DNA of 62,908 nt from Alphaproteobacteria bacterium (GTDB lineage: Bacteria > Pseudomonadota > Alphaproteobacteria > RF32 > CAG-239), in contig JAZNXK010000029.1 of assembly GCA_045593845.1 (NCBI GenBank), forward strand, positions 1 through 62,908, given 5' to 3'. Positions 43,910 to 62,908 of this stretch are shown here, piece after piece (positions within the stretch are counted from its first letter, which is position 1; the number at the start of each line of letters is the position of its first letter). A program made the position numbers and the translations under genes. The notes below the pieces were generated by a model that was not told the DNA's origin, searched no databases, and was given only the letters and a program-made list of their open reading frames with translations.

Positions 43910-44260
43910 ATGCGATTTATTAAGAAAAACTTCTGGACAATGTTAGCGATGATTTTCGTTATTTCATTGTCATTTGTCAGCGACGCTTCTGCACAAACCT
44001 TCTTTGTTACAACACAAGGTAAGTTGATTCAACTTTTCCAAAACGTAAAGTTAGTTGTGTTCATCATTGGCGGTTTCGGCTTGGTTGCAGTTGCTTTTGC
44101 TGCTATTTTTGGCAAAATTAACTGGAAATGGTTTGCAGGTTTAGCAGCAGGTCTTGCTATCTTGGCTGCAGCTGCAATGGCTATTGAATACGTTACCGGT
44201 ACTGCTGGTTGGGAATCATCTAATAACCAAACAGTTGTTGATACATTTGGTAACATTTAG
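43910..44260 (+). CDS. virB2: VirB2/TrbC family pilin 1 (probable major pilin)
   Basis: Signal peptide ending ASA|Q, two hydrophobic helices joined by FGKINWKWF, AAGGAG RBS, downstream terminator, upstream of virB3-virB4. Confidence 0.8.
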   Translation: MRFIKKNFWTMLAMIFVISLSFVSDASAQTFFVTTQGKLIQLFQNVKLVVFIIGGFGLVAVAFAAIFGKINWKWFAGLAAGLAILAAAAMAIEYVTGTAGWESSNNQTVVDTFGNI

Positions 44261-44284
44261 TATTGTAGCCAAACTCAACCCAAC

Positions 44285-44332
44285 AAAGGAGAGCTGCCGA
44301 AAGCTCTCAGCCGACAGCGGCTCTCCTTTTTT
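44285..44332 (+). terminator. Intrinsic terminator with an alternative fold after virB2-1
   Basis: AAAGGAGAGCTGC...GCGGCTCTCCTTTTTT 13-bp stem; competing GAGAGCT/AGCTCTC hairpin. Confidence 0.7.
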
Positions 44333-44364
44333 CTTCAACCGATATTTATGAAAGGAGACCTAAA

Positions 44365-44703
44365 ATGCTGTGTATAAAACTAAAGAAACAGATATTTATG
44401 TTTTTGGCTGTATTTGTGATTTCTTCAGTTTTATTTGCAGCCGAAAGCTATGCCGCCGACAGCGGATTGTTTAGTGATCTCATTTCTAAAGGTGCCGAAA
44501 TATTCAACGGTATGCGTGATATTATATATGCCGTATCCGGTTTTGGTATTATCGCCGTTGCTATTGGCGGTATATTCGGTAACTTCAACTGGAAATGGCT
44601 CGGAGCTATCATAATCGGATTGATGGTTATTGCCGTAACCTCAGGAATAATAGAATATCTGACTGGCACAAAAATACAAGACATAACAGATACTTTAAAA
44701 TAA
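44365..44703 (+). CDS. virB2: VirB2/TrbC family pilin 2
   Basis: Signal ending SYA, IIYAVSGFGIIAVAIGGIFGNFNWKWL; paralog of 43910. Confidence 0.78.
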   Translation: MLCIKLKKQIFMFLAVFVISSVLFAAESYAADSGLFSDLISKGAEIFNGMRDIIYAVSGFGIIAVAIGGIFGNFNWKWLGAIIIGLMVIAVTSGIIEYLTGTKIQDITDTLK

Positions 44704-44715
44704 AAGGAGGCGGCC

Positions 44716-45405
44716 ATGAAAAAAATAATCAACATATATGTAACCGCAGCTATTCTGATACTATTAAGTGCCGGCACATCTTTTGCAGCAGATAACATAT
44801 TTGCTACCATTGTCAGCAAAGTAAATACCACATTACTCGACTTACAAAAAGTTGTATATATTATAGGTGGTTTGGGCATGGTTGCGTTCGCTTTTGCTGC
44901 CGTATTTGGAAAAATCAGCTTCAGACATCTTTCATACCTGTCTTTTAGTCTGTTTTTGGTCGCCATGATGGGGCCTTTCGTTCGTTATTTTAGCGGTGAT
45001 GATAGTGCAATGACTCAATTGGAATATCAAGATTATTGTCAAGTTCAAGATTGTTCATTTGGCTATTTTCCTGAAGATTGCGAGGGGAACGACTGCGATA
45101 CACCTGATGATGTTGATTGTGATTCACTGTATAATGCTGCCCTTGGAGGTGATCCAGACGCAAATAGTCAACTGGCTGATACCGATTGCCAAGACCAACT
45201 TTTCAATGGTCTTAATATTCCCAATAGCAACAATAACAACAATAACAATAATAACAATAGCAACAATAACAACAATAACAATAATAACAATAATAACAGC
45301 TCTTCGTGTGACGAATGGGGCAATATAATGAACAACTCAAATTATCCTCTTTCACAACAATTAGTGGCTCAACATAACTATATAGCGAACGGTTGCAGTA
45401 ACTAG
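44716..45405 (+). CDS. virB2: VirB2/TrbC family pilin 3 with a Cys/Asp-rich and poly-Asn C-terminal extension
   Basis: VVYIIGGLGMVAFAFAAVFGKISF paralogous core followed by an extension with 8 Cys and an Asn run. Confidence 0.72.
   Translation: MKKIINIYVTAAILILLSAGTSFAADNIFATIVSKVNTTLLDLQKVVYIIGGLGMVAFAFAAVFGKISFRHLSYLSFSLFLVAMMGPFVRYFSGDDSAMTQLEYQDYCQVQDCSFGYFPEDCEGNDCDTPDDVDCDSLYNAALGGDPDANSQLADTDCQDQLFNGLNIPNSNNNNNNNNNNSNNNNNNNNNNNNSSSCDEWGNIMNNSNYPLSQQLVAQHNYIANGCSN
45223..45297 (+). repeat. AAC/AAT microsatellite containing an exact 33-bp tandem duplication
   Basis: AATAGCAACAATAACAACAATAACAATAATAAC at 45223-45255 and 45256-45288. Confidence 0.92.
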
Positions 45406-45416
45406 AGGTAATTTTC

Positions 45417-45740
45417 ATGAGAAAAATAGCAAAATTTTTAACTTTCGTTATATTAATACAAACAGTGTTTTCCGTCGATCCGTGGCGCAGAACTCAAAAA
45501 TTTTTTGATAGTTACGGCAATACCGCAAAATCATCATCAAGCGCAAATACTAAAATGCAAAGTAATGATTCAGATGAAAATTATCAGTATGTCTTATCTG
45601 TGCTTAAAAATGTTGATAAAAGAACAAATAACTACGATAAGAATGTTTCCGAAATATTAAATTCATGGAGCAAAAGCCCCAATTCATTGAATACTTTTAG
45701 CAATGTTGTTTCTGTTATCAATAATGCACAAAAGTATTAA
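45417..45740 (+). CDS. Small exported hypothetical protein in the T4SS locus
   Basis: GAGG RBS, N-terminal signal-like segment MRKIAKFLTFVILIQTVFS, S/N-rich. Confidence 0.6.
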   Translation: MRKIAKFLTFVILIQTVFSVDPWRRTQKFFDSYGNTAKSSSSANTKMQSNDSDENYQYVLSVLKNVDKRTNNYDKNVSEILNSWSKSPNSLNTFSNVVSVINNAQKY

Positions 45741-45744
45741 AATA

Positions 45745-45759
45745 TTAAGCTAAAATTAA
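45745..45759 (+). promoter_or_regulatory. CtrA-box-like motif upstream of the type IV pilin
   Basis: TTAA-GCTAAAA-TTAA; the AT-rich context lowers significance. Confidence 0.35.
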
Positions 45760-45815
45760 TAAAATATGTTCATAATGACTGCAAACGTAATAACTGTAAT
45801 GCGGGAAATTATACT

Positions 45816-46418
45816 ATGCTTAAAAGAAAACTATCAGAAAATTCAGGACGTTCAACTCTTGAAATGATTGGTGTCTTAACCATAATGGCAGTTTTGACTA
45901 TAGGTGGTATTGCCGGATATTCTAAAGCTATGCCAAAATATAGAATGTCAAAAATGGCAGAGCAAACTTCTTTAATCATAACTAATATTCGAGCTGCCTA
46001 TGCTATAAAAGATGATTATGCAGGACTAACCACAACTGCTGCAATTCAGATGGGAGCAATAGCTAAAGAAATGACCAAAATTGCAAGCGGAACTAATACA
46101 CTTGCAGCATTTAATCCCTTTGGAGGCCGAATATTTCTTTCCCCTGCCGAGGATCATAAAAGTGTATTTATAACTATAGCTGGCCTTCCAACCAATGCTT
46201 GTGTGTACCTTGGTTCTGCTGACTGGGGCGGAAGAGTTGGCAATGGTATTGCTTCCGTAGCAACTGTTGCTCAATCAACGCAGGCTCCAGTTTCTGAACG
46301 TCTTACAGAGAATATTGGTACTGCTGAAGATAATACCTTACCACTTGGAGTCATCGAAGCCAGTAATGGTTGCAACGGGGAAGAATCAAATAATGCCGTA
46401 GTTATTGAGTATAGATAA
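45816..46418 (+). CDS. Type IV pilin (class III signal peptide, PilS-like head)
   Basis: SENSG|RSTLEMIGVLTIMAVLTIGGIAGY (E at +5), NPFGG, GLPTNACVYL, C-terminal Cys pair. Confidence 0.85.
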   Translation: MLKRKLSENSGRSTLEMIGVLTIMAVLTIGGIAGYSKAMPKYRMSKMAEQTSLIITNIRAAYAIKDDYAGLTTTAAIQMGAIAKEMTKIASGTNTLAAFNPFGGRIFLSPAEDHKSVFITIAGLPTNACVYLGSADWGGRVGNGIASVATVAQSTQAPVSERLTENIGTAEDNTLPLGVIEASNGCNGEESNNAVVIEYR

Positions 46419-46582
46419 TTACCTGTCAAAATAACGGTTCTGCAGAAATTAGTCTGCAAAGATTTCAGATTGTAGCCGATTTATCTATTTTTAAGCTTTT
46501 TAACATATACTGTTGATTGCTGGGTTTTTTGTTGCATTCCAAAAACTTTTTTTGTAGAATCAAAAAACAGGGAGAACAAACA

Positions 46583-46873
46583 ATGAGAGAACCGATATTA
46601 AAAGCCGTTGCCGCACCGCCTAAGATATTGTGGGCGCCGTTTTTGCCCGTGCTCTTAAATATCGGTGTTCAGTTTCCGTTTATGTTTGCATCTATAGGCA
46701 CTTTTGATGTTAATCCCTTGGTTTTTGTAATATCTATCGTTATTGTTCACCTCATCATTATTATTTTTGCAAACAGAGAGCCTCACATTTCAAACATGAT
46801 TCAGGCATTCGGTCAATGTTATCGCGTAACCAACAATCTATATAAAACGAAGGGGAAGAAATTTGCACCCTGA
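46583..46873 (+). CDS. virB3: VirB3 family protein
   Basis: EPILKAVAAPPKILWAP, two TM segments, REPH, ends KFAP; directly upstream of virB4. Confidence 0.8.
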   Translation: MREPILKAVAAPPKILWAPFLPVLLNIGVQFPFMFASIGTFDVNPLVFVISIVIVHLIIIIFANREPHISNMIQAFGQCYRVTNNLYKTKGKKFAP

Positions 46874-49295
46874 TTTTGATTTTTTCAGCGTCTTTGTGCA
46901 GGGTTTAAGCAGCAAAGAGGTTATTGTCGCAATTATCGGTTTTATTTCAGCAATGTCTTTTGCCGGGCTTTGGGCAACGAAGTTTGGTCGTATTTTTTTA
47001 CCTCAACCCAATGAGTCGAGGGTATCTGACTTTTTGCCTTTTGATAAACTGCTCGAAGACGGCATGACAATTCGTTGTCACAATAAATCTCTTGCCCGAG
47101 TTTTCAAAATTGAAGGATTAGATTTGGCTTTTTCTTCGGAAGAAACCAATATATCAATGGCCGAAGCGAGAAAATCGTGGATTGACAGCATGTCTGATTT
47201 ACAGATTACTTCACGAGTCATAACTTTGCGTGAAAGGATTCCCGCGGATAAAATTGAAAATACTTTTGATAATAAAATATTGGAGAAGGTTGCTTATGCT
47301 TGGCAGGCAACGCTTAATCGTGTTTACGAAAACAGCCACTATATAATTATTTCCGTTCCCGACAGAGATGATGCCTTAAAAGATTTGAATTATGCATCTC
47401 AATCATTGATGGCAATATTGAGTGAATATGGCGTCCGCCCGATGTATGAAAATGCTGAAAGTTCACCGAAAGACAGCCCCTTCTATGTATTTAGTCGCAT
47501 GTGCAGTCCTCTTTCCAAACCGGATCCCAAAGTCGGTTCCACGGAAGGGCACCAATTAAGGGAATTATTGACGGCAGACCATATACATTTTACCGGAGAA
47601 GAAGGTATAATTCGCTTCTTTGCCGGCGAAAGAGAAAAATATGCAATAGTTATGGGTATCAGATCCTCCGGTGATTATATGGACGAGTCTATGATAATGT
47701 CTCTAATGGCACTTGATTGCGAAATTAATATTATCCATAATGTAAAGGCCCTATATCGCCCGAAAGCTCGTGCAATTTTGATGCAACAACGCAGTATGGC
47801 CAGAATGACAAGTTTTTCGGCAGATGTTGTTGACCAATATAGTTATGCAATGAGTTCAATCGAGGACAGTGATGCCAATTATCAATCGCTTTCCGAATAT
47901 GCCTTATCTATGGTAATATACGGAGAAAGCAAAGAAGAAATAGATTTTGCCGAAAGTGAAGTTCAAAGAATATGTCGTTTATTCGGTGTAACGCCGGTTC
48001 GTGAAGGCTGGGTTGCCCAAGCAACATTCTTCAGCCAATTTCCGACTTACGAGGTTTATCCCAGAACTTATCTTTATTTATCCAGAGTTATTACCGCTGC
48101 AATCTGTTTTGACAAGCCGTCCGAAGGATTTAATAAATGTGACTGGGGGCCGGGAGCAATTACAACATTTCGCACGGTTAACGGCTCCGGGTACAGGTTC
48201 CAATTTCACGTCTCTCCCGAAGAAGCTGCCGTTGCTCACTGCTGCATAATCGGACCGACCGGACAAGGTAAAACAACCTTGCTTACGTTTTTAGCCGGAC
48301 AAGCCATGCGACACAAAGACTTGAAGGTATTTTTCTTTGATCGTCACCGAGGTGCAGAGATTTTTACCCGTTCCATCGGCGGTGCATACATAGGTTTTGA
48401 CGGAGATGAAAAGAATGTTTCTCTAAATCCTTTTGATACATCCCCGACCCCGAATAACAGAGCCTTTTTGCGTCGTTGGATAAAATCCATTACCATGGTA
48501 GATGATGCTTTATCCGAGCACGAAATTGCCCGCGCTGTCACTACGGCTTTTGACTACCTGAAACCCGAAGAACGAATAATGGCAAACTTGCACAAAAGCT
48601 GTTTTTCTCCGACAGGTAATGTCCGACGTGAATTGTACCGCTGGATAAATCCCGACCAATACGGTAATATTTTTAATGCCCAAAATGATAGTTTGGATTT
48701 GCATACCAAAAGATTTATGGCTTTTGACTTTACACATATTTTTGAAGATGAAACTTTGGCTCCTGCCGTTATCAGTTATATCATGCACCGTATTCAGTCC
48801 GAAACCGGCGAGACCGGTGTTCCTTCACTAATTATGATTGATGAAACGGCGCCGATGTTAAAACACCCTATGTTCCGTGATTATTTCATTATTGGCTTGC
48901 AAGAAGGACGTAAAAAACGTCAGGCATATTTGTGCGCATTTCAACAACCGAATATTATCGATTCTCTGGGTGTCGGAGAGGCGATTCGCGGTCAATGCCA
49001 AACCGTAATTTTCTTTCGTAACCCGCAAGCGAGAGCAGAAGATTATGTCAATTGGAACCTCAATCAGCGAGAAATGGATTTTATTTTCGGTAAATCATAC
49101 AGAGAATTTCCTTATGCAATTTTACTTTCACGTCCGGCAACGGGAGAATCTGTAATTTTGGATGTGGATTTAAGCGGACTTGGACCATATTTAAAAATTT
49201 ACAACTCAAGCCGCAAAAATGTATTATTAGTTGAAGATTTAATAAAACAATACGGAGAGGAGAATTTTGTTACAAAATATTTAAATTTTTCGTAA
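46863..49295 (+). CDS. virB4: VirB4 family T4SS ATPase
   Basis: Walker A GPTGQGKT, FFFDRHRG, LNPF, Walker B IMIDE, RKK, FQQP, IFFRNP. Confidence 0.95.
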   Translation: MHPDFDFFSVFVQGLSSKEVIVAIIGFISAMSFAGLWATKFGRIFLPQPNESRVSDFLPFDKLLEDGMTIRCHNKSLARVFKIEGLDLAFSSEETNISMAEARKSWIDSMSDLQITSRVITLRERIPADKIENTFDNKILEKVAYAWQATLNRVYENSHYIIISVPDRDDALKDLNYASQSLMAILSEYGVRPMYENAESSPKDSPFYVFSRMCSPLSKPDPKVGSTEGHQLRELLTADHIHFTGEEGIIRFFAGEREKYAIVMGIRSSGDYMDESMIMSLMALDCEINIIHNVKALYRPKARAILMQQRSMARMTSFSADVVDQYSYAMSSIEDSDANYQSLSEYALSMVIYGESKEEIDFAESEVQRICRLFGVTPVREGWVAQATFFSQFPTYEVYPRTYLYLSRVITAAICFDKPSEGFNKCDWGPGAITTFRTVNGSGYRFQFHVSPEEAAVAHCCIIGPTGQGKTTLLTFLAGQAMRHKDLKVFFFDRHRGAEIFTRSIGGAYIGFDGDEKNVSLNPFDTSPTPNNRAFLRRWIKSITMVDDALSEHEIARAVTTAFDYLKPEERIMANLHKSCFSPTGNVRRELYRWINPDQYGNIFNAQNDSLDLHTKRFMAFDFTHIFEDETLAPAVISYIMHRIQSETGETGVPSLIMIDETAPMLKHPMFRDYFIIGLQEGRKKRQAYLCAFQQPNIIDSLGVGEAIRGQCQTVIFFRNPQARAEDYVNWNLNQREMDFIFGKSYREFPYAILLSRPATGESVILDVDLSGLGPYLKIYNSSRKNVLLVEDLIKQYGEENFVTKYLNFS

Positions 49296-49376
49296 CTGAT
49301 CAAAAATTTATTTTATCGTAGAGCATTTTGTGATAAAATGACTCTTATGGTGGGAACCAAACTGCGGAGAGGGAAC

Positions 49377-51089
49377 ATGACAAAAAAAAGTAGTATTGCC
49401 ATTATTATCGGTATGTTAATGTTATTTAACAATCATTCAGCCAAAGCACAGCTTCCAACAGTTGATTTTGGAAATATTGCCGGCACGATAGGTATTGTAA
49501 CCCAAGGAATAACAAACGTTAAGCAAGGTTTAGAGGTTATAACTAACGGAAGTAACCTGAATGCCATTATCGGAGATGCCGTCGGCACAATTTCAAAATT
49601 TGCCAGCACCATAAAGGGTTATGTTCAAGACGCACAACAAGCCATAGAAAAAGCAAAACAGAGGATTGCGGAAGGAAAAGAACTATACGAAAAGTATAAG
49701 AACGAAATAGAAGAAAGAAAAGCAAAATACCAAGCTTTGCTCCAAAGTATTCCTAATTACACAAATCCCAATTCTTATAATGATGAAGATGATAATACTT
49801 CTTCTTCAGGCAGGAATAATAATCAATCATCTGATGATAATAGCGGTTCCTCTAATAATAACTCCGGCAGGACACCAAATTCTCAAAATTCTGGCAATCA
49901 AATAAACAATGGTCGTAACCCATCATACAATACCGGCAACACCAGTTTAAGTTCCGGCAAAACTCCCGCCAACAACAGCAGTCTAAATACGGGTTCCGGT
50001 AAAACTCCCGCCAATAACAGCAGTGTAAATACCGGTTCCGTAAAAACTCCTCTTGACAACAGCGGCAAAATAAATACGGGATATAGAAGTTCTCCGACAT
50101 TGAATACATCTGACCAAAAGGGAGATGATTCTTCATATCTGAAAGACAATACCTTAACAGACAGTGATACCCTGGCCACCGAAGAAGAAGTTTTAACTCT
50201 GGATGAAAAAGATCAAAAGGATAATAAGGATAAAGAGCAAGAAAAGAGTAAGCTTCCGCAAAAGGATGATAGGTCATCTTTGTCAATAGGACGCCAAGCC
50301 TTCGGTACACCAGCGGATGAAAAAACTTCGTCAACAAAAGATTCAGCCTCAAAGGCGACGGAAACAATAACCAAGACCGTAACCCCGAATACAAATGAAT
50401 CAGATAAATCGGCAGCCGCAAAAAACCCAGCATCTGAAACAATTTCAAAGACAGACACATCTGCGGCGACCTCAAAATCAGGCGGAAAGGAGGCTACTTC
50501 CATAAATACCGGAAATCAGTTTAGAGTATCTCCGAGTGCCACAAAAGATAAACAATCTCATAATACTATAATATTCAGTTCTCGCCTCGCTTTTGCTGCA
50601 GAAACCAGCAATTCCAATAAAGGAACAGGTTATGATAAAAATGGTGTTTTCATTTTTAACACAAAATATTGCGACAAAAGTGTTGATGACCTTTTAACGG
50701 AAAACGGAACCAGAGAATGCTTTGTAAATATAGTTAATAAAATTAACAACAAAAACTCATATTATGCAATGCAGAACAAAGAAGATTGCAAAAAAATGGT
50801 AACCGACACATCAGTTGCTCTGTTGGCAGAAGCAATCAAAATGAAATATGAGGCATCAAACTACCAAGATACATTGGATGAACAAGAATCATTGGGTGGC
50901 AACAGTAACAATACCAGAGACGACACACAAGTATTGGCAATGAATTATGAACAAACACAAAAGCTGTTAAATAAATTGATAACACTTCTTTCCGGAGAAA
51001 CAATATACAGCATTACAAAAGAAATATGTGATGTTACGGAAAAAGTGCTCGAAGACAACGAAGTGGATGTAGACAATGGAGGTAAATAA
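49377..51089 (+). CDS. Secreted VirB5/TrbJ-like protein with a long low-complexity insertion
   Basis: Signal AKA|QLPTVDFGNI (VirB5-type P-x-x-D start), coiled coil, N/S/T/K linker, helical C-terminus; follows virB4. Confidence 0.55.
   Translation: MTKKSSIAIIIGMLMLFNNHSAKAQLPTVDFGNIAGTIGIVTQGITNVKQGLEVITNGSNLNAIIGDAVGTISKFASTIKGYVQDAQQAIEKAKQRIAEGKELYEKYKNEIEERKAKYQALLQSIPNYTNPNSYNDEDDNTSSSGRNNNQSSDDNSGSSNNNSGRTPNSQNSGNQINNGRNPSYNTGNTSLSSGKTPANNSSLNTGSGKTPANNSSVNTGSVKTPLDNSGKINTGYRSSPTLNTSDQKGDDSSYLKDNTLTDSDTLATEEEVLTLDEKDQKDNKDKEQEKSKLPQKDDRSSLSIGRQAFGTPADEKTSSTKDSASKATETITKTVTPNTNESDKSAAAKNPASETISKTDTSAATSKSGGKEATSINTGNQFRVSPSATKDKQSHNTIIFSSRLAFAAETSNSNKGTGYDKNGVFIFNTKYCDKSVDDLLTENGTRECFVNIVNKINNKNSYYAMQNKEDCKKMVTDTSVALLAEAIKMKYEASNYQDTLDEQESLGGNSNNTRDDTQVLAMNYEQTQKLLNKLITLLSGETIYSITKEICDVTEKVLEDNEVDVDNGGK
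49953..50081 (+). repeat. In-frame 42-bp tandem repeat, 3 copies
   Basis: SGKTPANNSSLNTG / SGKTPANNSSVNTG / SVKTPLDNSGKINTG. Confidence 0.88.
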
Positions 51090-51760
51090 TGAAAATACGT
51101 TTACTAACATTGGTCGTAGTATTTAGCCTTTGTTTTGTGCAACAGGCAAGGGCCGACTTTGAGGCCATACAAACAGTTTTTACGGTGATTGAAAACGTTA
51201 CCAAAAAGATAGATAATGTATTTTCTAAAATACAAGAAGTAACGACAGAAATTCATAGAATTCGCACCGGTATAGAGGGAAAGATAGAAAAAATCAAAAA
51301 CCTTGTAGAAGAGGGAAAAGATTTGCTGACCGGTGGCGGATTAAAAGATAAGATTTTGGCCAGATTTAAGATCGGTAACATTCTTAACGGACTTGAAAAT
51401 AATAACATAAGAGATATTGAGCGAGGTATTCTTGAAGAAACTGTAGCTCTCTATACTAATGAAAAACAAACAGAAACATATATGAAAATAAAAGATACAA
51501 ATGCCAAAATCTTGAAAGAGGACTTATCAAGAATGTATGCTTATGCATTCACTCTCAGAACCAATTTGGCAAAAGAACGTAAAGAAAACGACGATACCCC
51601 GGTAGTGGCAACGGATTCAAGAGAAATATATGCATTGGCCAATAAAGAAGCATTGGAAAGCGCCAGAAGATTAAATCGAATTTTGGATATGCAGGCATCA
51701 AAAGCTTCTATAGAAATGCGTATAAAATTGAGAACTGACACCCGTTCGGAAGAAGATTAG
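51089..51760 (+). CDS. Secreted helical protein, VirB5-like size and architecture
   Basis: Signal ARA|D, heptad-rich, 223 aa, no TM segment. Confidence 0.5.
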   Translation: MKIRLLTLVVVFSLCFVQQARADFEAIQTVFTVIENVTKKIDNVFSKIQEVTTEIHRIRTGIEGKIEKIKNLVEEGKDLLTGGGLKDKILARFKIGNILNGLENNNIRDIERGILEETVALYTNEKQTETYMKIKDTNAKILKEDLSRMYAYAFTLRTNLAKERKENDDTPVVATDSREIYALANKEALESARRLNRILDMQASKASIEMRIKLRTDTRSEED

Positions 51761-51771
51761 GAGAACAAGCA

Positions 51772-52860: not shown

Positions 52861-52872
52861 AGGAGAATAAAA

Positions 52873-55800: not shown

Positions 55801-57435
55801 GAGAATATTCAATCTCCCAAACTTTCGGATGTGCTTTCGGCAATTTCTCTTTCTGATACAAATTTGGAAGAGCTGATTAATAAAGCTGATGTTTTAGTGG
55901 ACAAGGCCAGAGAATGTGCCGCCCAGCTGATTGATGAGCACTTGCAAGAGCTGCAAGCCAGCGCGGCAGGGGATATGCTTTATAAAAGTTCAAATCACCA
56001 AAATGTAGTAAACAAGCATAACCAGCTCATAAATAAACTGAAAAATTTGCCTTCAGCATGTCTGCTTAACACCGTCCAAAGTCAAATAGGAATTCTTGAA
56101 ATCAGTGAACAAATCATAATGGGGCAACTGCAAAATATTTTCCAGTCCGCGCTGACATCAGATATATGTTCTGAATATGATTGCAACACTCCTGACAGTG
56201 ATTATTTTGTCGGACAAGTGGCAAAGAAACGCGATTTCACGGCACCACGTTCCCTGTCGGTTGAAGCCCACCCAACGGTCCGCGATATCGTCCACCTTGA
56301 CACAACGGATTATAAAAATATCAAAATGTCGAAACACGGCAGAATAACCAGAGATGCATTCTTGGAATATGGTGCGGAAATGCCGTCAATATGGACACGC
56401 CTGTTATCTGATAACTCTTATGTGGAAAGAAGAGCCAACCTATCGCCAATTCTCAATAAAGGAGGCGAGGATAAAGCATTTTTGCGCGGAATGATGCTGC
56501 CGTGCAAACTCGGACGATATGTAATTGATGCAAATGAAAACAACGGAAAATATAAAGTGCTCGATACCGTCGAAGATGCAACCTACGCAGAAACGTTAGA
56601 ATTCAACAAACTTGCGGATTGTCAGGAATTGGAGGTAGTTATCCATGTGATTGACAGTTATACTCTGAAAGACACGGATGTAAAAGACAACATTCATGGT
56701 ACCGGCACCAATGAAATAGAAGATCCTGTGAGCAGTGAACTTGGAATGTTCTTAAAATATGAAAACGGACATCTTTCCATAAACGACAGACCTTTCGATG
56801 GAATAGGCACTCTCGTTGAAAAAGAGAAAAAAGCCGAGAAAAAAGGCAAGCTTAATTTAAAAGCCGAAGACAATGTATATGAGAGAGCATTGTTTGCAAA
56901 AAATCAAATCGGCGAATTTTTACACTTTATGAACAAAGAAAAAGAAGCCAGAGAAAAACTCGAGCAGGCCGAAGAAGATATTGCCGAATTGAGAGAAACA
57001 TTAAAGCAAGCCGTATCTGAATTGGGCTTTGAATTAAGCGATGATGTAAATTTGGCCAATCAGGAAGACTATGATGAGGTTGTGCAAAAACTTAAAACCA
57101 GTAAAAATACAATCATGGGCCAAGCTATCGTAAAACTGAATAATACGAAAGATTTGGCTCAAAGTAATGCAGATGTATATGAACGTTACTATAAGGCAAA
57201 AAACACCTATGATGCCTTGGTTCAAGATAACAAAGCATTAGTGAATATAAGTGCAAATACAGAGGCCGGTAACGACTTAAAAGAAAGTATAAAATCTGAA
57301 GAGGCAAATAAGAAAGTTGTTGAAAAATCACGCAATGATGGTTATAAAGCCCTGCAGGATGAAATTGACAACTATGAGCAACCAATTTGTATTCCTAACG
57401 GAGTAATAGTTCCTACATCACAAGTAAATAACTGA
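52873..57435 (+). CDS. Giant secreted protein with a VirB5-like N-terminus, a linker and coiled-coil/Cys-containing domains
   Basis: Signal SMA|QLPFAASFDFG, 1520 aa, no TM segment, inside the T4SS operon. Confidence 0.55.
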   Translation: MKKNNLKFCILFILLLSVMLPHNSMAQLPFAASFDFGAEIKGVIQDIQASLKSVETNIVGVWKGNLSKLQAAFDQYSGKITKVFNKIPGTKDFKIGSTIGINSGSNSGSIFGSILGANSAIASGGSMQSVDIYNAASVKEAFEELFLTYPSTEKRAQIAYDNMSNKFYYDTLIEVRAAITGLEEQLDKLRKEVEDFSEQAMSAPEGGAESGDSDGATSAEDESGVIYNAYLSNRKFNDILKVTEEVVALQNQYYAAKLMRRPRKVVPSIPNNRSGQQSFIIFSQSLAYAQYVKNESTNKSYYQNNASDLDSKMGISSTEKSAIKQNDGGIVVKEITFTEKSDGQAKLSPVEQKITSSEDKTISAKQSQEESILSKKDALDEKSDVKSTAKEDTVISTDLQKTSITSRQYVSEKQPQNDKEIADTSVKKISSSSKITEASDPISNSPKIINSGKDDTYIQQKDESGVNAENKLSGSSRTNYYDDDDFFAVPAAPETSSPLKYSVAELEALNKIAEANTLVDKAKDVHNLLQQLPSYQDTFKQFGLIKRIHEKAKAALERADGCVTRYLGYYYNNPNNIWYGQSTIPTNRFDYDSRKGLSGVAIEAYQLANASSGNNIDISELTNPVPGAEDGDPELIEFDTDKLSKKTEGFVTPAIDISDSDNGYSDSVRDLDPEKMAEERDGETESLEDNFTDSNKAKEFTTTSREVSLINWQVGKAITQYLAQDQNKQNPEYGKPYRPYELWNDERSYYDQYISGKYGNMKAYINQLNVGESALGIVELFNSVTENEEEKQSIANGISAIANALNNNVGVSDPLASIMQARNSAIATLKQQQKSKLENKQEKLDKANNNLQAVTQQISKINEEINESSNDVTSNDSTANSSQQFLDILNRRGTNPLSSLFSQAREKLQEAIGNLSIEGTRLNLLKVELKTLEVTRKALKERVNKLSEDIEELIQEQQMELETAESDWDAMIVTAQENIQSPKLSDVLSAISLSDTNLEELINKADVLVDKARECAAQLIDEHLQELQASAAGDMLYKSSNHQNVVNKHNQLINKLKNLPSACLLNTVQSQIGILEISEQIIMGQLQNIFQSALTSDICSEYDCNTPDSDYFVGQVAKKRDFTAPRSLSVEAHPTVRDIVHLDTTDYKNIKMSKHGRITRDAFLEYGAEMPSIWTRLLSDNSYVERRANLSPILNKGGEDKAFLRGMMLPCKLGRYVIDANENNGKYKVLDTVEDATYAETLEFNKLADCQELEVVIHVIDSYTLKDTDVKDNIHGTGTNEIEDPVSSELGMFLKYENGHLSINDRPFDGIGTLVEKEKKAEKKGKLNLKAEDNVYERALFAKNQIGEFLHFMNKEKEAREKLEQAEEDIAELRETLKQAVSELGFELSDDVNLANQEDYDEVVQKLKTSKNTIMGQAIVKLNNTKDLAQSNADVYERYYKAKNTYDALVQDNKALVNISANTEAGNDLKESIKSEEANKKVVEKSRNDGYKALQDEIDNYEQPICIPNGVIVPTSQVNN

Positions 57436-57471
57436 TTATGTAACAATGCTTATAAAGAAAGCCGTTAAATA

Positions 57472-58227
57472 ATGGATATAAAGAATAACCTTCTCAATAA
57501 CACCAAAATAAAAGCCATAACTGATGGCAAACAGATTTTTCCGCACTTTTTGGAAAAAGAAGAAAAAAACAAAAGAGGCCTCAAGCTATATTACTATATG
57601 TGGCTTTCTCGGTTATTTATATTTTCTGCCACAATTTTTCTACTGCTGTTTTTAGCCGCATCTCTTTCACTATTCAAACTTGCGCCCCAGGTAACGGTTG
57701 AACCGTTTTTAATCATAAATCAAAATTCTTCCGCAGAAATGGTGATAGCTGAACCTATAGCCACAAATATGGCCTCAAAAGAAAAATTGATGGAAACTTT
57801 TGTAAAACAATACGTCATATATCGCAATTCTATTGTCAGTGATACCAAAGAAATGCAAACCAGATGGTATCCCGGCGGCTTGATACACTTTCTTTCCAGT
57901 GAAGCGGTATTTAAGAATTTTTACGAACCGATAGAAAGAGATTTGCCTCAAATGGTATCAAACGGACAAAATCGTGAAGTCGAAATTTTATCGGTCGGAA
58001 AAGTTGGCGGGCAAAAAAGTCCTGTGTGGAAAGTTGACTTTAAAACGTATGAAACATCAAACAGCAGCAGAGATTCTGCCACCGGTGTAATAGTTCCGAA
58101 AATACGCTATTGGACAGCCTCAGTTACACCGTTTTTTGTTCCTGAAAGAATTTTTACCGGACGCAGGCTGATAAACCATCTTGGCTTTACCGTTTACAGA
58201 TACAATCAAAGCGAAGTCAGTTTTTAA
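57472..58227 (+). CDS. virB8: VirB8 family protein (copy a; NHLGF in place of NPxG)
   Basis: TM helix, VEPFLI, FVKQYVIYRNS, LSS..VF..F, INHLGFTVYRY. Confidence 0.85.
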   Translation: MDIKNNLLNNTKIKAITDGKQIFPHFLEKEEKNKRGLKLYYYMWLSRLFIFSATIFLLLFLAASLSLFKLAPQVTVEPFLIINQNSSAEMVIAEPIATNMASKEKLMETFVKQYVIYRNSIVSDTKEMQTRWYPGGLIHFLSSEAVFKNFYEPIERDLPQMVSNGQNREVEILSVGKVGGQKSPVWKVDFKTYETSNSSRDSATGVIVPKIRYWTASVTPFFVPERIFTGRRLINHLGFTVYRYNQSEVSF

Positions 58228-58323
58228 AAATAAGCATTCTGTGGCTATCTTGAGAAATGTGTTAGACTTTTGTAAAAAAAGAGTTTAAATTCTAACCAAC
58301 TATAGTTAGAAAAGGAAAAACTC

Positions 58324-58512
58324 ATGAGCAAAAAGTTAATATTGCTGTTCTTCGTATGTTTATTGGCGGGGTGCGGCATCTTTGGTTCGTATTATGAGCC
58401 GGAGCCTGTTGAAATAGGTAAAGCAACGGATGAATTAAAAATGTCTCCTTGCGCCTGTCTTCAAGTTGAATTGCCTCAAACATTACCGGACTGGTTTGTC
58501 GAAACAATCTAA
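58324..58512 (+). CDS. virB7: VirB7-like small lipoprotein
   Basis: LLAG|C lipobox, KMSPCAC motif resembling Rickettsiales RvhB7, located between two virB8 genes. Confidence 0.7.
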   Translation: MSKKLILLFFVCLLAGCGIFGSYYEPEPVEIGKATDELKMSPCACLQVELPQTLPDWFVETI

Positions 58513-58530
58513 AAGTATAGATGAGGCAAA

Positions 58531-59253
58531 ATGGTTAAAACAATAGGAAATAACAACAATCAAAAATTGCTTACCGGCACAACATCAACGAGCCACAAAA
58601 GCTCTGATGGGGATGTTTTTGTTGCAAACACCGAAGAAAAAAGATATTTGTGGACGGCAAGAGCTTTTGCGATTGTAACGGCAATCAGTTTTTGTTGTAA
58701 CATAATTTTGTTATTGGCAATATCCCAAGTTATTCCCTTATACAGAGTAGAACCATTCTTGTTGACTTTTCAAAATAAAGAAGAGCAAATTTATAATCTG
58801 AAACCTATGGGCAGAAGCTTTTCCGATTCAAAATCGGTTACAGAGATTTTTGTTCGCCAATACGTTTTAATGCGCAGCTCTTTTGATAGAGATATCGAAG
58901 ACGTAGAAGCCAGATGGTTACCGGGCGGTAGCATTCAAGAAATGTCCTCTCCTTCTGTTTATGACGATTTTTTGAAAAATACAGCTAATCGCGCTCTGGA
59001 AATTATGAGGAGTCGTCACTTAATAAGAGATGTGCGCATCCTTACTGTGAACGAACTGGGCTCTAATATATGGCAGGTAGAATATGAAACCAGAGATATG
59101 TATCCTGATTCCAGAAAACCTGATGTCAACTACTGGACGGCATCCTTAAAAGTTACATACCGCCACAAAACGGTAAAATACAAAGAGCGTCTGAAAAATC
59201 CCGTAGGATTTACGGTAATAAATTATTCTTTAAGCCATAACACAGTGAAATAG
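58531..59253 (+). CDS. virB8: VirB8 family protein (copy b)
   Basis: TM helix, PLYRVEPFLL, FVRQYVLMR, MSSPSVY, RLKNPVGFTVINY. Confidence 0.92.
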   Translation: MVKTIGNNNNQKLLTGTTSTSHKSSDGDVFVANTEEKRYLWTARAFAIVTAISFCCNIILLLAISQVIPLYRVEPFLLTFQNKEEQIYNLKPMGRSFSDSKSVTEIFVRQYVLMRSSFDRDIEDVEARWLPGGSIQEMSSPSVYDDFLKNTANRALEIMRSRHLIRDVRILTVNELGSNIWQVEYETRDMYPDSRKPDVNYWTASLKVTYRHKTVKYKERLKNPVGFTVINYSLSHNTVK

Positions 59254-59264
59254 GTGGTAATAAT

Positions 59265-60860
59265 ATGTTGTTAAAGCTAGTAAAAATAAATATATTCGTT
59301 TTAATTTCCGTTTTGTTTTCTGCAGATGTTTATGCGCAAACAACCATAGACAGTTTGAACCAAAATGCAGAACAATCCCAAGGGCAATACCAGCCTATGG
59401 ATATGAGTTATGCAGGATTTAATTCTCTGGGCATGATGCAAAGTGCATGGCTTGATCCTTTGCAAAATCTTGGTGAGGGACAGAGCCGACCGGCTTATTC
59501 CAAATATTACTGGTCACCGGATTTGGTTTTGCCTTTGCGCTTGCGTGAGGGAATGATTACCATGGTTAATTTTCCTGAATGGGAAATGATAGAAGATATA
59601 TATCTCGGTGACAGTTCAACATTTGACGGACAAATATCCGGTCCTAATACTTTGCTGTTATATCCCCGTAAAGGCGCAAACGTTGGTGTTGATACAAACA
59701 TCATCGTTTTTGGACGTTCAGGCAATCGCTACGTTTTCTATGCAAGAAGCGAGGGTGTCAACACCGAAAGATTGACGAATTCTATAGTTGATATAGAAGT
59801 TATTGGGGCAGAGAGTGCAAACGGTGGAGTAAGTTCTTTAACCGGAGGAGGACATGCCAATGCTTCAAAATACTATGCCGGTGGAGGAAAATCCGTTGAT
59901 TCCACATTTACAAAGAGAAATCAAAAAAATAATTGGGTAGAAAGCATTCCTTTAGACCCGACAAAATTTCGTTTTGATATAGAAGTATATGTTCCCAATC
60001 CCGATGATGTTGTTATTGCGCCGGAGCGGGTATGGCGTGACGATATTTTTACCTATATTGATTTAGGTGCAAAATCTCTCAATATGACACAGCGCCCCAT
60101 AGTGACCTTAATTGTTGAGCGTATGGAAGTTCCTGTTGGGTTCAGAACCAAAGGTCCGAATAATCGTTTGATTATTGTTGAGGCAATAGGCGATATGGTT
60201 TTGCGTAACGGAAAAAGAATTGTCTGCTTAAAAATGCGCAGATCTGATGATAACGGTTTGGAAGATTCAACAAAGGCTGACGATATTGTTGGTAATGAGT
60301 GGGATAGAGGCGATAAAATACCGAATATGAATTCCAAAGCGGGAGGTGCTGAATATCCTGATGTTACCAGACCGGCAACAGGTAATTCCGCTAATTATCC
60401 TGTCGGACAAACGGATGTTCACGTCGGAAACGGTGAAATTATTGTCCCCGGATACGGAAATCTTGGAGGACAAGGCGCAAATTCCGGTGATTTTGATTAT
60501 TCAAAGATGCACCGCATTCAAAACACACAGCAATTTAACCCTGCGGTAAGCAATTTTGCAAATCAATATCGCAACGGAGCCGGCTTTGGAGATGAAAACG
60601 GATCAAATATATCCATAGAACTCGGCACTGATGCCAATGTCGATAATTTGGAAAATCTATGGGATAATATATTAAGCAAACACGGAAAAACCTTGAAAAA
60701 TTATGATCCTTTCTTTTCCGTAGATGCTCCGGCTGACGGCCAAGGCAAAGAATTATTCCATTTGAGAATAGGTCCCGTAAAAACATTGGATGAGGGCGAT
60801 AAAGTCTGCAGCCAGCTTGGCAGAAGTGGTGTATTTTGTAGTGTGGTCAGAACTCAATGA
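59265..60860 (+). CDS. virB9: VirB9/TrbG family protein fused to a C-terminal SPOR domain
   Basis: Signal peptide, YLGDS, NTLLLYP, DTNIIV..RSG.RY.F, IAPERVWRDDIFTYID; SPOR: IELG...LW...FHLRIGP....GDKVCSQL...GVFCSVV. Confidence 0.88.
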   Translation: MLLKLVKINIFVLISVLFSADVYAQTTIDSLNQNAEQSQGQYQPMDMSYAGFNSLGMMQSAWLDPLQNLGEGQSRPAYSKYYWSPDLVLPLRLREGMITMVNFPEWEMIEDIYLGDSSTFDGQISGPNTLLLYPRKGANVGVDTNIIVFGRSGNRYVFYARSEGVNTERLTNSIVDIEVIGAESANGGVSSLTGGGHANASKYYAGGGKSVDSTFTKRNQKNNWVESIPLDPTKFRFDIEVYVPNPDDVVIAPERVWRDDIFTYIDLGAKSLNMTQRPIVTLIVERMEVPVGFRTKGPNNRLIIVEAIGDMVLRNGKRIVCLKMRRSDDNGLEDSTKADDIVGNEWDRGDKIPNMNSKAGGAEYPDVTRPATGNSANYPVGQTDVHVGNGEIIVPGYGNLGGQGANSGDFDYSKMHRIQNTQQFNPAVSNFANQYRNGAGFGDENGSNISIELGTDANVDNLENLWDNILSKHGKTLKNYDPFFSVDAPADGQGKELFHLRIGPVKTLDEGDKVCSQLGRSGVFCSVVRTQ

Positions 60861-62908
60861 GCAAAGAAGCATTAACACATTCTGAAAATTACATCAAAAA
60901 AACCAACCGCATAATCCTTGCGGTTGGTATAACTTCTTTTATAATATTCATTTTAGGCTTATATTTGCTGTTTGCAAGCAACGGCAATTCCGATGAATAT
61001 GCAGAACCTACATTTTCAGATAATGATGATGCTTTGAATATCTCAAATCAAACGGCAGAAGATGCAAGTATAGAATTCAGTACCATAACTGATGGTGAAG
61101 TTCCGATAACAACAACCCCGAACCCTGTTTCTTTGGGGCAGGTAATTATAGGTTCGGATGCTAAAAATGTGTTGACAATAGGCACTAACGGCAAATCATC
61201 GGTTGTAGTCATATCGGTTCACTTGGCCGAAGCTGCCTTTGACGGATTTGAATATAACGACCAGTGCAGCGGAAAAATATTACGAGGGAAAGAAACTTGC
61301 GATATCACAATGAGTTGGACCCCGGTCGTTACCGGAAACGTTCAAAATAATTTTATTATCTCATGGCATGAAAGTAATGTTTCTCAATCAAGTGCAAAAT
61401 CAGAAAAAGTTACAGTGTTTGGCAATGCCGTAACCAAGGAAGATTGTAACTTTTGTGATGCATCTTCGGTAGAAAATTCCGTCGGAGGCAAAACAAAGTC
61501 AGATAAAGAAAAATCTAACAAAACGCGCGCAATAATAGGCCCTGAAGGCAATATCATAGGCTATGCCAATGATGAAGGATATGTTTATAATGAAAAAGGT
61601 GAAGTTATCGGCCGCGTAAATGAAAACGGTTTGGCTGTAGATGCCGAAGGCAATATTATCGGTGTTGCCAATAATAAAAAGTTGGTTTTTGACGACAATG
61701 GCAATGTTATCGGTTATGTAAATTCAGATGGAACGGTTGTCGATTTGAATAGTAATGTAATCGGCAAAATGCTGCCAGACAATACGGTGGTTGATTTTAA
61801 AGGCAATGTCATCGGCAAAGCTGTGGACATGGGATATGTATATGACGACAATGGCAATACCATCGGTCAGGTAATGTCAGACGGCACCGTTGTTGACAGT
61901 AACGGTAACGTCGTCGGCCGCCTTAATGAAAAGGGCGAAGTTGTGGATGCTTCCGGTAATGTTTTAGGTCGTGTAAACAAAACAGGTCAAGTTGCAATAG
62001 ATGAAAACGGCAATATTTTAGGTGTTGTAATGCCCGACGGAACCGTTGTTGACGCAAACGGTGAGGTTGTAGGGCGCATAGATAAAGACGGCAATGTAAT
62101 AGCCAACAAAATTATACCCAATAACAGCATAAATCGTCGTGCCGTATATGACGATAGCGGAAAGATGGTCGGATATGTCGATAATGACGGTCTTGTTCGC
62201 GATTTTAACGGTAATATTATAGGCAGAACACGTCCTGATGGAACCATTGTAGATAATCAGGGAAAGGAACTGACGGCATCAGGTGTGCGTTTGGCATATG
62301 ATAATGACGGAAAAGTCATAGGTTACGTTGATAAAAACGGCAATGTAATAGGTGCCGAAGGAAAAGTAATCGGCGTAATGACAGAAAATGGTATGATTAT
62401 TGATAAAGAAGGAAAAGTTATCGGTCGTGCGGCTCCTGAAAATGATGAAGAGTCGCAATATAGTGTTTTGGCTTATGATAAAGACGGCAAAGCCATCGGT
62501 TACGTTGACGGCAAAGGCAATGTTCATGACTTTAACGGCAATGTAATCGGCAAAGTTTCGGAAAGTGGTAATATAGTTGATAAAGACGGCAATGTAATCG
62601 GTAAAATAGATCAAAAACGATTGGCCTATGACGAGAACGGTAACGTAATCGGTTATGCAGATGGAAAAGGCGACGTCTATAACTTCAAAGGCGAGAAAAT
62701 AGGTAGAATTAAAGCTGATGGAACAGTAGTTACAAACGCGGAAAGAACAATCGGCAAAGTCTCACCCAATGAGCGCATAGCATACGATAAAAACGGCAAA
62801 GCCATCGGCTATGTAGACGAGAGCGGCACGGTCCGTGACTTTAGCGGCAAGGTAATCGGCAAAGCCCGCGAAGATGGAACAATAGTCGATAATTCCGGTA
62901 ACGTAATC
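60857..62908 (+). CDS. Giant single-TM repeat protein in the virB10 position (truncated by the window end; absent from the ORF track)
   Basis: ATG overlaps the virB9 stop (ATGA); 684 open codons: MSKEALTH..., TM helix ILAVGITSFIIFILGLYLLF, Ig-like domain with C-x10-C, then DxxGxVIG repeats. Confidence 0.85.
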   Translation, partial: MSKEALTHSENYIKKTNRIILAVGITSFIIFILGLYLLFASNGNSDEYAEPTFSDNDDALNISNQTAEDASIEFSTITDGEVPITTTPNPVSLGQVIIGSDAKNVLTIGTNGKSSVVVISVHLAEAAFDGFEYNDQCSGKILRGKETCDITMSWTPVVTGNVQNNFIISWHESNVSQSSAKSEKVTVFGNAVTKEDCNFCDASSVENSVGGKTKSDKEKSNKTRAIIGPEGNIIGYANDEGYVYNEKGEVIGRVNENGLAVDAEGNIIGVANNKKLVFDDNGNVIGYVNSDGTVVDLNSNVIGKMLPDNTVVDFKGNVIGKAVDMGYVYDDNGNTIGQVMSDGTVVDSNGNVVGRLNEKGEVVDASGNVLGRVNKTGQVAIDENGNILGVVMPDGTVVDANGEVVGRIDKDGNVIANKIIPNNSINRRAVYDDSGKMVGYVDNDGLVRDFNGNIIGRTRPDGTIVDNQGKELTASGVRLAYDNDGKVIGYVDKNGNVIGAEGKVIGVMTENGMIIDKEGKVIGRAAPENDEESQYSVLAYDKDGKAIGYVDGKGNVHDFNGNVIGKVSESGNIVDKDGNVIGKIDQKRLAYDENGNVIGYADGKGDVYNFKGEKIGRIKADGTVVTNAERTIGKVSPNERIAYDKNGKAIGYVDESGTVRDFSGKVIGKAREDGTIVDNSGNVI
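61529..62908 (+). repeat. Degenerate ~16-aa V-x-D-x-x-G-x-V-I-G repeats (DUF3659-like) grouped as ~50-aa triplets
   Basis: e.g. LAYDKDGKAIGYVDGKG NVHDFNGNVIGKVSESG NIVDKDGNVIGKIDQKR LAYDENGNVIGYADGKG. Confidence 0.9.

Follow-up and report, generated by a model that had tools for sequence, protein, structure and literature searches.

An expanded type IVA secretion system resident in the alphaproteobacterial order RF32 and its candidate role in contact-dependent protein delivery

Among the type IV secretion systems (T4SSs) with a name, the nearest relative of the one described here is carried by plasmid pMVF16-3 of Microvirga sp. VF16 (NZ_CP069357.1). Our system belongs to the alphaproteobacterial order RF32 (family CAG-239) and occupies positions 43,910 to 62,908 of contig JAZNXK010000029.1 (hereafter the window, 62,908 bp, which is the entire contig C29 of its assembly). 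As here, the Microvirga genes stand in the order VirB2, VirB3, VirB4, three unnamed proteins, a lipoprotein of ~58 aa with the motif SPCAC, VirB8, a long VirB9 (550 aa), VirB10, VirB11, and VirD4, and the identities to our proteins are 38% for VirB4, 35% for VirB9, 40% for VirB11, and 32% for VirD4. However, the Microvirga system is plasmid-borne, and a relaxase of the MobA/MobL type is encoded 5 kb upstream of its virB2. Its VirB8 is single, its VirB10 has a normal size (590 aa), its VirB9 showed no SPOR domain, and the stretch compared contains no giant pilin-domain protein, secretin, or tandem VirB6 array.

The rvh system of Rickettsiales is characterized by duplicated RvhB4, RvhB8, and RvhB9, multicopy RvhB6, and the absence of VirB5 (PMC11077975), and islet C of Rickettsia has the order virB9a-B8a-B7-B8b-B9b-B10-B11-D4 (legend of Fig. 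9 in PMC2653234). Our system resembles it in being resident, vertically inherited, and relaxase-free, in the pair of VirB8 genes around VirB7 followed by VirB9-B10-B11, in tandem VirB6 genes with long extensions, and in its scattered genes. In contrast, our system has one VirB4, which belongs to a different clade, one VirB9, and probably proteins of the VirB5 kind. Its giant split VirB10, SPOR domain, secretin, and pilin-domain giants are not among the hallmarks given in the cited part of PMC11077975.

Other described systems share single traits with the locus. The Cag system of Helicobacter pylori is likewise an expanded type IVA system, whose VirB10 and VirB9 homologs (CagY and CagX) have extra domains and are much larger than those of minimized systems, and CagY is a precedent for a much enlarged VirB10 homolog with extra domains (PMC9371333). 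The repeats found here differ in being beta-flower hairpins (PF21784/PF21785), and VirB10 is split into two genes. In the Trw system of Bartonella, trwL and trwJ-trwH are amplified, which has been read as a source of variant adhesins, and there is no coupling protein, according to the cited part of PMC2883598. Amplified and fast-diversifying surface parts of the pilus (VirB2, VirB5, VirB6) are common to both, but VirD4 has been kept here, and Trw is a recent IncW-type derivative whereas our system belongs to a different deep VirB4 clade. On the IncI1 plasmid R64, a thin type IVb pilus of the PilS type works beside the T4SS. A complete cluster of the PilS/PilO/TcpQ/secretin/PilQ/PilR type also exists in our genome (contig C11), and a pilin copy lies inside the T4SS locus; however, both systems are chromosomal and without conjugation genes here, and they are linked by position only, in few of the genomes (the pilin in 2/60 loci).

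We found that in RF32 familiar T4SS parts have been duplicated, fused, and enlarged in ways that we did not find described in print. An earlier note on this DNA, made from the sequence alone, had recognized no described system with such an architecture, and no published account was found in open-access full text. With somewhat more confidence than doubt, we regard the locus as a chromosomal, vertically inherited, and expanded type IVA system, core to the order, that would serve contact-dependent protein delivery together with elaborate adhesion.

Retention and gene content of the locus

The window belongs to a metagenome-assembled genome (MAG) of 1.41 Mb in 39 contigs (99.9% complete). The T4SS super-locus covers ~42 kb over contigs C29 and C31, roughly 3% of the 1.4-Mb genome; positions 43910-62908 are its upstream ~19 kb, and VirD4 lies apart on contig C33. 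To our knowledge, the order has no cultured member. Record titles place its MAGs in human, chicken, and ruminant gut samples (gut, rumen, faecal), and the 151 genomes sampled measure 1.3-2.0 Mb.

VirB4 was found in 150 of these 151 genomes and in 20/20 genera, with one full-length copy each and 65-86% identity, and it is single-copy in the window genome. VirD4 was found in 100 of 101 genomes (65-85% identity), while MobA/MobL (PF03389) occurred in only one of the 101, as a fragment with stop codons. We conclude that the machine is resident rather than mobile. The earlier note had pictured such a resident machine and had seen no relaxase, and both points were borne out: the distribution across related MAGs is not patchy, and a search of the window genome for the relaxase families PF03432, PF08751, and PF03389, which did not extend to MOBH, MOBV, MOBC, and MOBT, gave no significant match.

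From position 43910 to the contig end there are sixteen open reading frames (ORFs), all on the + strand and nearly gapless. All items of the earlier gene list, from three virB2 genes to a giant repeat protein, were recovered at their positions by ORFs and Pfam matches. Gene contents were compared over 60 related loci, and TM stands for transmembrane below.

43910-44260, + strand: VirB2 paralog a, 116 aa (Pfam TrbC, E 1.2e-6; 29 bits, with the cut-off at 27.9)
44365-44703, + strand: VirB2 paralog b, 112 aa (Pfam TrbC, E 2.2e-7, over the cut-off)
44716-45405, + strand: third VirB2-domain protein, 229 aa (N-terminus: sub-threshold Pfam TrbC match, E 1.3e-3; VirB2 paralog a matched at 1.4e-10 in phmmer)
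45417-45740, + strand: orphan ORF, 107 aa (no Pfam family)
45816-46418, + strand: type IVb prepilin of the PilS/bundlin type, 200 aa (Pfam PilS 5.9e-9, Bundlin 2.6e-6)
46517-46873, + strand: VirB3 (Pfam VirB3, E 3.5e-3, a weak match; two TM helices), overlapping virB4 by 11 nt
46863-49295, + strand: VirB4 ATPase, 810 aa (Pfam CagE_TrbE_VirB 5e-14, over the cut-off)
49338-51089, + strand: p583, subfamily A, 583 aa (signal-like helix, no other TM helix; clusters with p362)
51089-51760, + strand: p223, subfamily B, 223 aa (signal-like helix, no other TM helix; all-helical in an AlphaFold2 model with a predicted local distance difference test score, pLDDT, of 72.7)
51772-52860, + strand: p362, subfamily A, 362 aa (signal-like helix, no other TM helix; clusters with p583)
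52873-57435, + strand: p1520, subfamily B, 1520 aa (signal-like helix, no other TM helix; N-terminal module and long helical extension; no Pfam family)
57472-58227, + strand: VirB8 paralog a, 251 aa (Pfam VirB8 6.9e-12)
58324-58512, + strand: VirB7-like lipoprotein, 62 aa (lipobox LLAGC, SPCAC motif)
58531-59253, + strand: VirB8 paralog b, 240 aa (Pfam VirB8 8.7e-26; VirB8 chains in the PDB down to 1e-9)
59265-60860, + strand: VirB9 with a C-terminal SPOR domain, 531 aa (CagX 3.2e-12; SPOR 1.2e-4, 22.8 bits against a cut-off of 21)
60857-62908, + strand: N-terminal 684 aa of the giant repeat protein G1, running off the contig (Pfam Bflower_2 1.5e-55, DUF3659, ASH)

The giant repeat protein G1 appears from its sequence to be the inner-membrane half of a split VirB10 of ~3000 residues in total. 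It has a short cytoplasmic tail, a TM helix at residues 19-37, an ASH domain, and an array of beta-flower repeats, each a beta-hairpin of 17 residues. Contig C29 at its 3' end and C31 at its 5' end share exactly 43 bp, the sole such pair in the assembly, and because this unique overlap joins C29 to C31 in frame, G1 reaches a full length of at least 1617 aa. The next protein, G2 (1438 aa, on C31), has its own signal peptide, beta-flower repeats, and a TrbI/VirB10 domain at the C-terminus. It begins 2 nt after the G1 stop, and a GGAGG lies inside the last codons of G1. At the junction (positions 2830-2850 of L105, that is, C31: ...CGGAGGAATTAAAATTG), the stop codon of G1 is TAA and the start codon of G2 is TTG. 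The gap measures 2-6 nt across genomes, and the C-terminus of G1 (EVAKNRRN) and the N-terminus of mature G2 (EITAI[DN]FNG) are nearly invariant across genera. The two genes are predicted to be translationally coupled, with G1 anchored in the inner membrane and G2 exported by Sec with its VirB10 barrel domain.

The order G1, G2, and VirB11 was seen in all 15 informative genomes of RF32, representing 7 genera, with G1 of 1099-2202 aa and G2 of 1395-1604 aa; this count leaves out one genome of the order (G124) and four of other families (G257, G348, G227, and G416), in whose examined regions the giant VirB10 was not matched, probably because these lay on the wrong side or the contig ended. In family f25, a single ORF of 2831 aa after VirB9 spans the anchor of G1, the repeats, and the TrbI domain, and VirB11 comes next. 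The beta-flower fold is built of beta-hairpin "petals" and has been related by its describers to the lipid-binding Tubby domain (PMC10584680). The repeats make up most of the split VirB10, and their period of 17 residues fits one petal.

At the other end of the locus, paralogs a and b of VirB2 are each present in 57 of the 60 loci, paralog a having a signal peptide and two TM helices, and three VirB2-domain ORFs occur in 50/60. In 40 of the loci, the third slot is filled by an ORF of 600-1896 aa that contains a VirB2 domain (1e-11 to 1e-21 in single-pass phmmer), its pilin hairpin of ~75 residues standing between long N- and C-terminal extensions. One form of 776 aa passes the Pfam TrbC cut-off, and the extensions of six such giants contained no Pfam domain. 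Both termini of the pilin face the exterior of the pilus in solved conjugative pilus structures; if this holds here, the extensions would be exposed on the pilus surface. Membership of the large ORF that precedes virB3 was also considered, namely in the VirB5-like family treated below, but this was rejected because the family profiles weakly match only 5 of 54, and it is a pilin-domain protein instead. The window genome has the short form of the slot (229 aa), with a C-terminal tail rich in Cys and poly-Asn. A stretch of ~30 Asn/Ser codons in this tail (45240-45330 of the window) could be a site of length variation. As for the 107-aa ORF that follows, it has no homolog in the 60 loci and no paralog in the genome, and possibly does not belong to the conserved parts of the machine.

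VirB3 and VirB4 form the conserved middle. VirB3 occurs in all 60 loci (57-80% identity), and its start is likely the ATG at 46580, which gives 97 aa. VirB4 matches TIGR00929 at 1.4e-114, below the equivalog-style cut-off of that model, and TrwK in the PDB at 6e-42. The median identities over the 60 loci are 76% for VirB4, 65% for VirB3, and 54-60% for VirB8, and only 27-32% for the four proteins between VirB4 and VirB8; by these sequence comparisons, the presumed surface parts are the fastest-evolving parts of the locus.

These four middle proteins, all predicted to be secreted, form two related subfamilies with a common N-terminal module, alternating as A-B-A-B or, in some genera, as A-B-A-B-A-B. 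No other genes of the locus are as poorly conserved, and among relatives they vary in number (4-6) and length. The largest, p1520, is present in 60/60 loci with a median identity of only 27%, and the profile of the p223 family matches its residues 1-261 at 2e-13. In a database of 14 sequences, the p583-family profile weakly matched VirB5 of Agrobacterium, the p362-family profile matched the first gene after virB4 of Microvirga at 3.5e-8, and the family profiles also gave a weak match to TrbJ of Sinorhizobium. In the Atlas, p223 lies near a cluster of which 62% of the members carry PF07996 (score 0.90), and its model aligned with TrwJ/VirB5 of R388 (7o3v_A) at Z 8.6 over 121 residues in VIA-align, jointly the top match and within the noise for helical proteins. 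NCBIfam gave no match for the four proteins, nor for VirB2, VirB3, or VirB8 paralog a. Considering their position in the VirB5 slot, we think it fairly likely that they constitute an expanded VirB5-like family. Because they look VirB5-like, a lack of VirB5, which the earlier note gave as an rvh trait, is probably wrong for this system. The elaborate pilus and surface apparatus that the note proposed was borne out.

Downstream of them, VirB8 paralog a was found in 55/60 loci, and the VirB7-like lipoprotein in 40/60 at E<=1e-5. Microvirga has a 58-aa ORF in the corresponding place, and the SPCAC motif of the lipoprotein recurs in it. A third VirB8 is unlinked (see the list below). VirB9 is single-copy, with one PF03524 match in the window genome; its fusion with the peptidoglycan-binding SPOR domain was also seen in family f25 and in two further RF32 genomes, and it is absent in family f175 and Microvirga.

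The earlier note had advised looking downstream for virB10, virB11, virB6, and virD4; the first three lie on C31 and VirD4 on C33. VirB11 directly follows G2 (TIGR02788, 6.2e-42) and is kept in 15/15 loci examined. After it comes a block of five genes, on the opposite strand here and on the same strand in genus g2. Their products are a bitopic protein of 218 aa, a lipoprotein of 419 aa, two proteins of 164 aa and 702 aa (the latter acidic), and a helix-turn-helix regulator. The off-window genes are as follows.

C31 8169-12743, - strand: 218-, 419-, 164-, and 702-aa genes of the secretin block, beside virB11
C31 13886-16939, - strand: VirB6-like protein, 1017 aa, with an N-terminal periplasmic M23 peptidase domain before the membrane domain and a long C-terminal tail
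C22 60518-61297, - strand: third VirB8 paralog, 259 aa, unlinked (phmmer to VirB8 paralog b, 6e-33)
C11 ~170200-184400, - strand: type IVb pilus cluster of the R64/bundle-forming type, complete and distant from the T4SS here

The 419-aa lipoprotein had no Pfam match. Its model (pLDDT 61) had 41 Foldseek matches in the PDB at E<=1e-3, nearly all of them secretins, the top ones being BfpB (4.4e-10), PilQ, InvG, and GspD, and in the Atlas it lies near clusters carrying PF00263. The best 120 of 950 matches in a homology search were all close relatives without Pfam annotation. It was found in 41/41 genomes of the order, on the contig of virB4 wherever both lay on long contigs. It is distinct from the secretin of the C11 pilus and, judged from its model, has a secretin fold. 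In the compact locus of family f175 (G323 contig C5, L171 171-7650), which consists of VirB3, VirB4, VirB7, one VirB8, and VirB9, a homolog of this lipoprotein directly follows VirB9 in the place where VirB10 is expected, and the contig ends there.

Four tandem VirB6-like polytopic paralogs of 1167, 450, 539, and 1017 aa are also found on C31, with 5-9 predicted TM helices, one of them over the Pfam TrbL cut-off. The one with the M23 domain may substitute for a locus-linked VirB1 lytic transglycosylase; the genome has two SLT-domain genes, neither of which lies near a T4SS gene. VirD4 on C33 is unlinked to the rest (PF02534, 2.2e-42, over the cut-off). A second VirD4 paralog of ~780 aa (27-38% identity) occurs in many genera, and none was seen in the window genome or in seven sampled genomes of its genus. 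The parts list is complete, with VirB2 x3, VirB3, VirB4, VirB6 x4, VirB7, VirB8 x3, VirB9, VirB10, VirB11, and VirD4, and with VirB4, VirB2, VirB3/6/8/9/10, VirB11, and VirD4 all present the system is assigned to type IVA (VirB/VirD4, like mating-pair formation type T). Both VirB8 paralogs of the window and the CagX, TrbI, and TrbL matches exceed their Pfam cut-offs.

In contrast to what the earlier note supposed, the type IVb pilin at 45816-46418 is not part of the T4SS, because it is present in only 2/60 loci and is a paralog (4e-39) of the major pilin of the C11 cluster. It has a G-x4-E leader (...G|RSTLE, E at +5). The C11 cluster encodes TcpQ, a secretin, PilO, an ATPase, a platform protein, two PilS-type pilins, and a PilT-like ATPase, and a prepilin peptidase (Peptidase_A24) is encoded on contig C28. 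From these sequence relationships, the pilin seems to be a stray accessory paralog of that separate pilus system. The pilus cluster directly abuts the T4SS in L042, a member of the order and one of the 2/60, and on contig C14 of G173 (family f25), and this repeated adjacency hints at a cooperation of the two systems.

Housekeeping genes lie just upstream of the T4SS genes.

40859-42235, - strand: cysS (Pfam)
42250-43587, - strand: gltX (Pfam)

The adjacency to gltX and cysS noted earlier is real in the window and is not a conserved feature, as it was seen in none of the 60 loci within 10 kb of virB4. Further upstream there are ten ORFs, including DnaB, NrdD (anaerobic ribonucleotide reductase), NrdG (its activase), Alr (alanine racemase), and ThrS. 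An ORF of 820 aa among the housekeeping genes (24315-26777, + strand) matched no Pfam family at E<=1e-5. The GC content is even over the window (0.35-0.41 per 2 kb).

Descent of the system

Among 401 Alphaproteobacteria, the relatives of VirB4 at 39-65% identity come from about 17 further families, whose genomes are all small (0.9-2.5 Mb), and the rest are at 32% or less. The best plasmid match is the Microvirga megaplasmid of 731 kb (37.9%), the other 39 rows, sampled across the ranking, lying at 20.9-29.0%. The rvh reference was family f138, whose two genomes were the only ones of the 401 over the cut-off of NCBIfam NF010473, and whose label comes from one VirB4 marked "Rickettsiales bacterium" at NCBI, a single protein record. 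In the f138 genome, virB3-virB4 is followed by three polytopic genes, and a second VirB4 lies beside VirB8-B9-B10-B11-D4 in an rvh-like manner. The VirB4 comparison covered this one Rickettsiales family and five named plasmids.

In the VirB4 tree (49 rows), the system falls in a clade of 28 rows (100 in the Shimodaira-Hasegawa-like approximate likelihood ratio test) together with the small-genome families and Microvirga, which is nested in it. The pair of Rickettsiales VirB4-I and VirB4-II forms a clade of its own, in an unresolved base with the VirB4s of Agrobacterium and Phaeobacter. When the RF32-like and Rickettsiales VirB4s were forced into one clade, the log likelihood dropped by 418 and the approximately unbiased (AU) test gave p-AU 1.8e-83, for a group defined after the tree had been seen. 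Identity to the Rickettsiales VirB4-I is ~23%, compared with 38% to Microvirga, and for each of VirB4, VirB8, VirB9, VirB10, VirB11, and VirD4 the similarity to Microvirga exceeds that to the Rickettsiales MAG. A small VirB8 tree joins our three paralogs to the one VirB8 each of Microvirga and f175 and sets them apart from the two Rickettsiales VirB8s (supports 81-82).

The earlier note had called the system related to rvh. Its order B8-B7-B8-B9-B10-B11 is indeed that of islet C, so far as the Fig. 9 legend of PMC2653234 gives it, and the tandem VirB6 paralogs and the lack of a Pfam VirB5 would also suit a member or a direct sister of the Rickettsiales rvh. However, the VirB4 tree separates the two and the AU test rejects their union, the six core proteins are nearer to Microvirga, and the VirB8 paralogs, at their modest support, side with Microvirga and f175. 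Of the five rvh hallmarks, two are found here (duplicated VirB8 and multicopy VirB6), and VirB4 and VirB9 are not duplicated; in the VirB5 slot, PF07996 is negative and there are four helical paralogs with weak VirB5/TrbJ/TrwJ signals. The descent from or beside rvh is therefore largely refuted, and we give it next to no credence. The duplication of VirB8 looks independent of rvh, and since the VirB8 tree puts it inside this lineage, the likeness is best read as convergence during the domestication of a conjugation-type system.

Candidate functions

If the system delivers proteins on contact, as we favor, VirD4 would recruit the protein substrates, and VirB4 and VirB11 would drive both the assembly of the machine and the passage of substrates through a channel built from VirB3, VirB6, and VirB8. 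VirB7, VirB9-SPOR, and G2 would form an enlarged outer-membrane complex pinned to the peptidoglycan, which the repeat arrays of G1 and G2 would tie to the inner membrane. The VirB2 pilus, with VirB5-like tips and pilin-anchored extensions, would make contact with a bacterium, a protist, or the host, and effectors would be delivered into the contacted cell, conjugation having been lost.

Several observations weigh against this interpretation. The VirB5 kinship of the middle proteins rests on weak signals: PF07996, the Pfam VirB5 family, was not found in the window genome, the p223 model had no Foldseek match in the PDB at E<=1e-3 (CagL was 15th, E 4.3), and the p223-family profile found no VirB5 among PDB sequences. 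The neighbours of VirD4 belong to no Pfam family and offered no effector candidates. That the secretin works with the T4SS is suggested only by their fixed linkage, and in NCBIfam the VirB10 domain scores highest with ComB10, from a DNA-uptake system (2e-31, vs 5.5e-27 for VirB10). For relaxases, the window genome was searched with three Pfam families and the order with one, with MOBH, MOBV, MOBC, MOBT, or novel types outside their scope. Finally, it was binning that placed contigs C29, C31, and C33 together; relatives in which a single long contig carries the entire locus back this assignment.

Other functions have been weighed on the same evidence. A machine for adhesion only, like the Trw of Bartonella, would translocate nothing, and its pilus parts would bind the host or a partner. 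The three VirB2, 4-6 VirB5-like, and four VirB6 proteins and the divergence of the surface parts speak for it, and the amplification of trwL and trwJ-trwH reported in the cited part of PMC2883598 is similar; but Trw has no coupling protein, whereas VirD4 is retained here in 100/101 genomes at 65-85% identity, and VirB11 was kept in 15/15 loci, which makes this function unlikely, if the most credible of the three weighed here. Retention of VirD4 and VirB11 would suit conjugation or DNA release through an unrecognised relaxase, for example of chromosomal DNA between kin, and the Microvirga relative does have its MobA/MobL upstream of virB2. Nevertheless, the genome has no significant match to the three relaxase families searched, MobA/MobL across the order amounts to one broken fragment, and the system is single-copy, vertical, and set among housekeeping genes, so that we rate this as rather improbable. 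Somewhat less credible still is a ComB-like role in DNA uptake (competence). The ComB10 match of the VirB10 domain and a type IVb pilus system in the genome, sometimes adjoining the locus, are in its favor; however, ComB systems are not known to have VirD4 or VirB11, both of which are conserved here, and uptake needs no large surface apparatus.

Biological significance

The system puts textbook assumptions on T4SSs to a natural test. VirB10 has been held to be one chain that senses the inner-membrane ATPases and gates the outer-membrane pore, and it is split in 15/15 genomes. The VirB2 pilin domain is tolerated midway in proteins of ~1900 residues, and a secretin fixed beside a T4SS locus is unusual. 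The rvh-like traits, namely the duplication of VirB8 around VirB7, the VirB6 arrays, and the loss of the relaxase, would have arisen more than once upon the domestication of conjugation-type systems.

A machine that is kept in essentially every species, takes up ~3% of the genome, and has no conjugation genes gives a strong hint about the way of life of its carriers. We also suggest, tentatively and with more doubt than belief, that all of these parts make up a single composite contact apparatus matched by no described T4SS, in which a two-piece VirB10 of ~3000 residues with possibly lipid-binding beta-flower domains, an additional dedicated secretin, a peptidoglycan-anchored VirB9, a peptidoglycan-cutting VirB6, and a pilus with giant pilin-anchored adhesins and variable VirB5-like tips would attach to bacteria, protists, or host epithelium and inject into them. 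If this were true, the abundant uncultured gut bacteria of the RF32 type and of several related small-genome lineages would be obligate epibionts or parasites rather than free fermenters.

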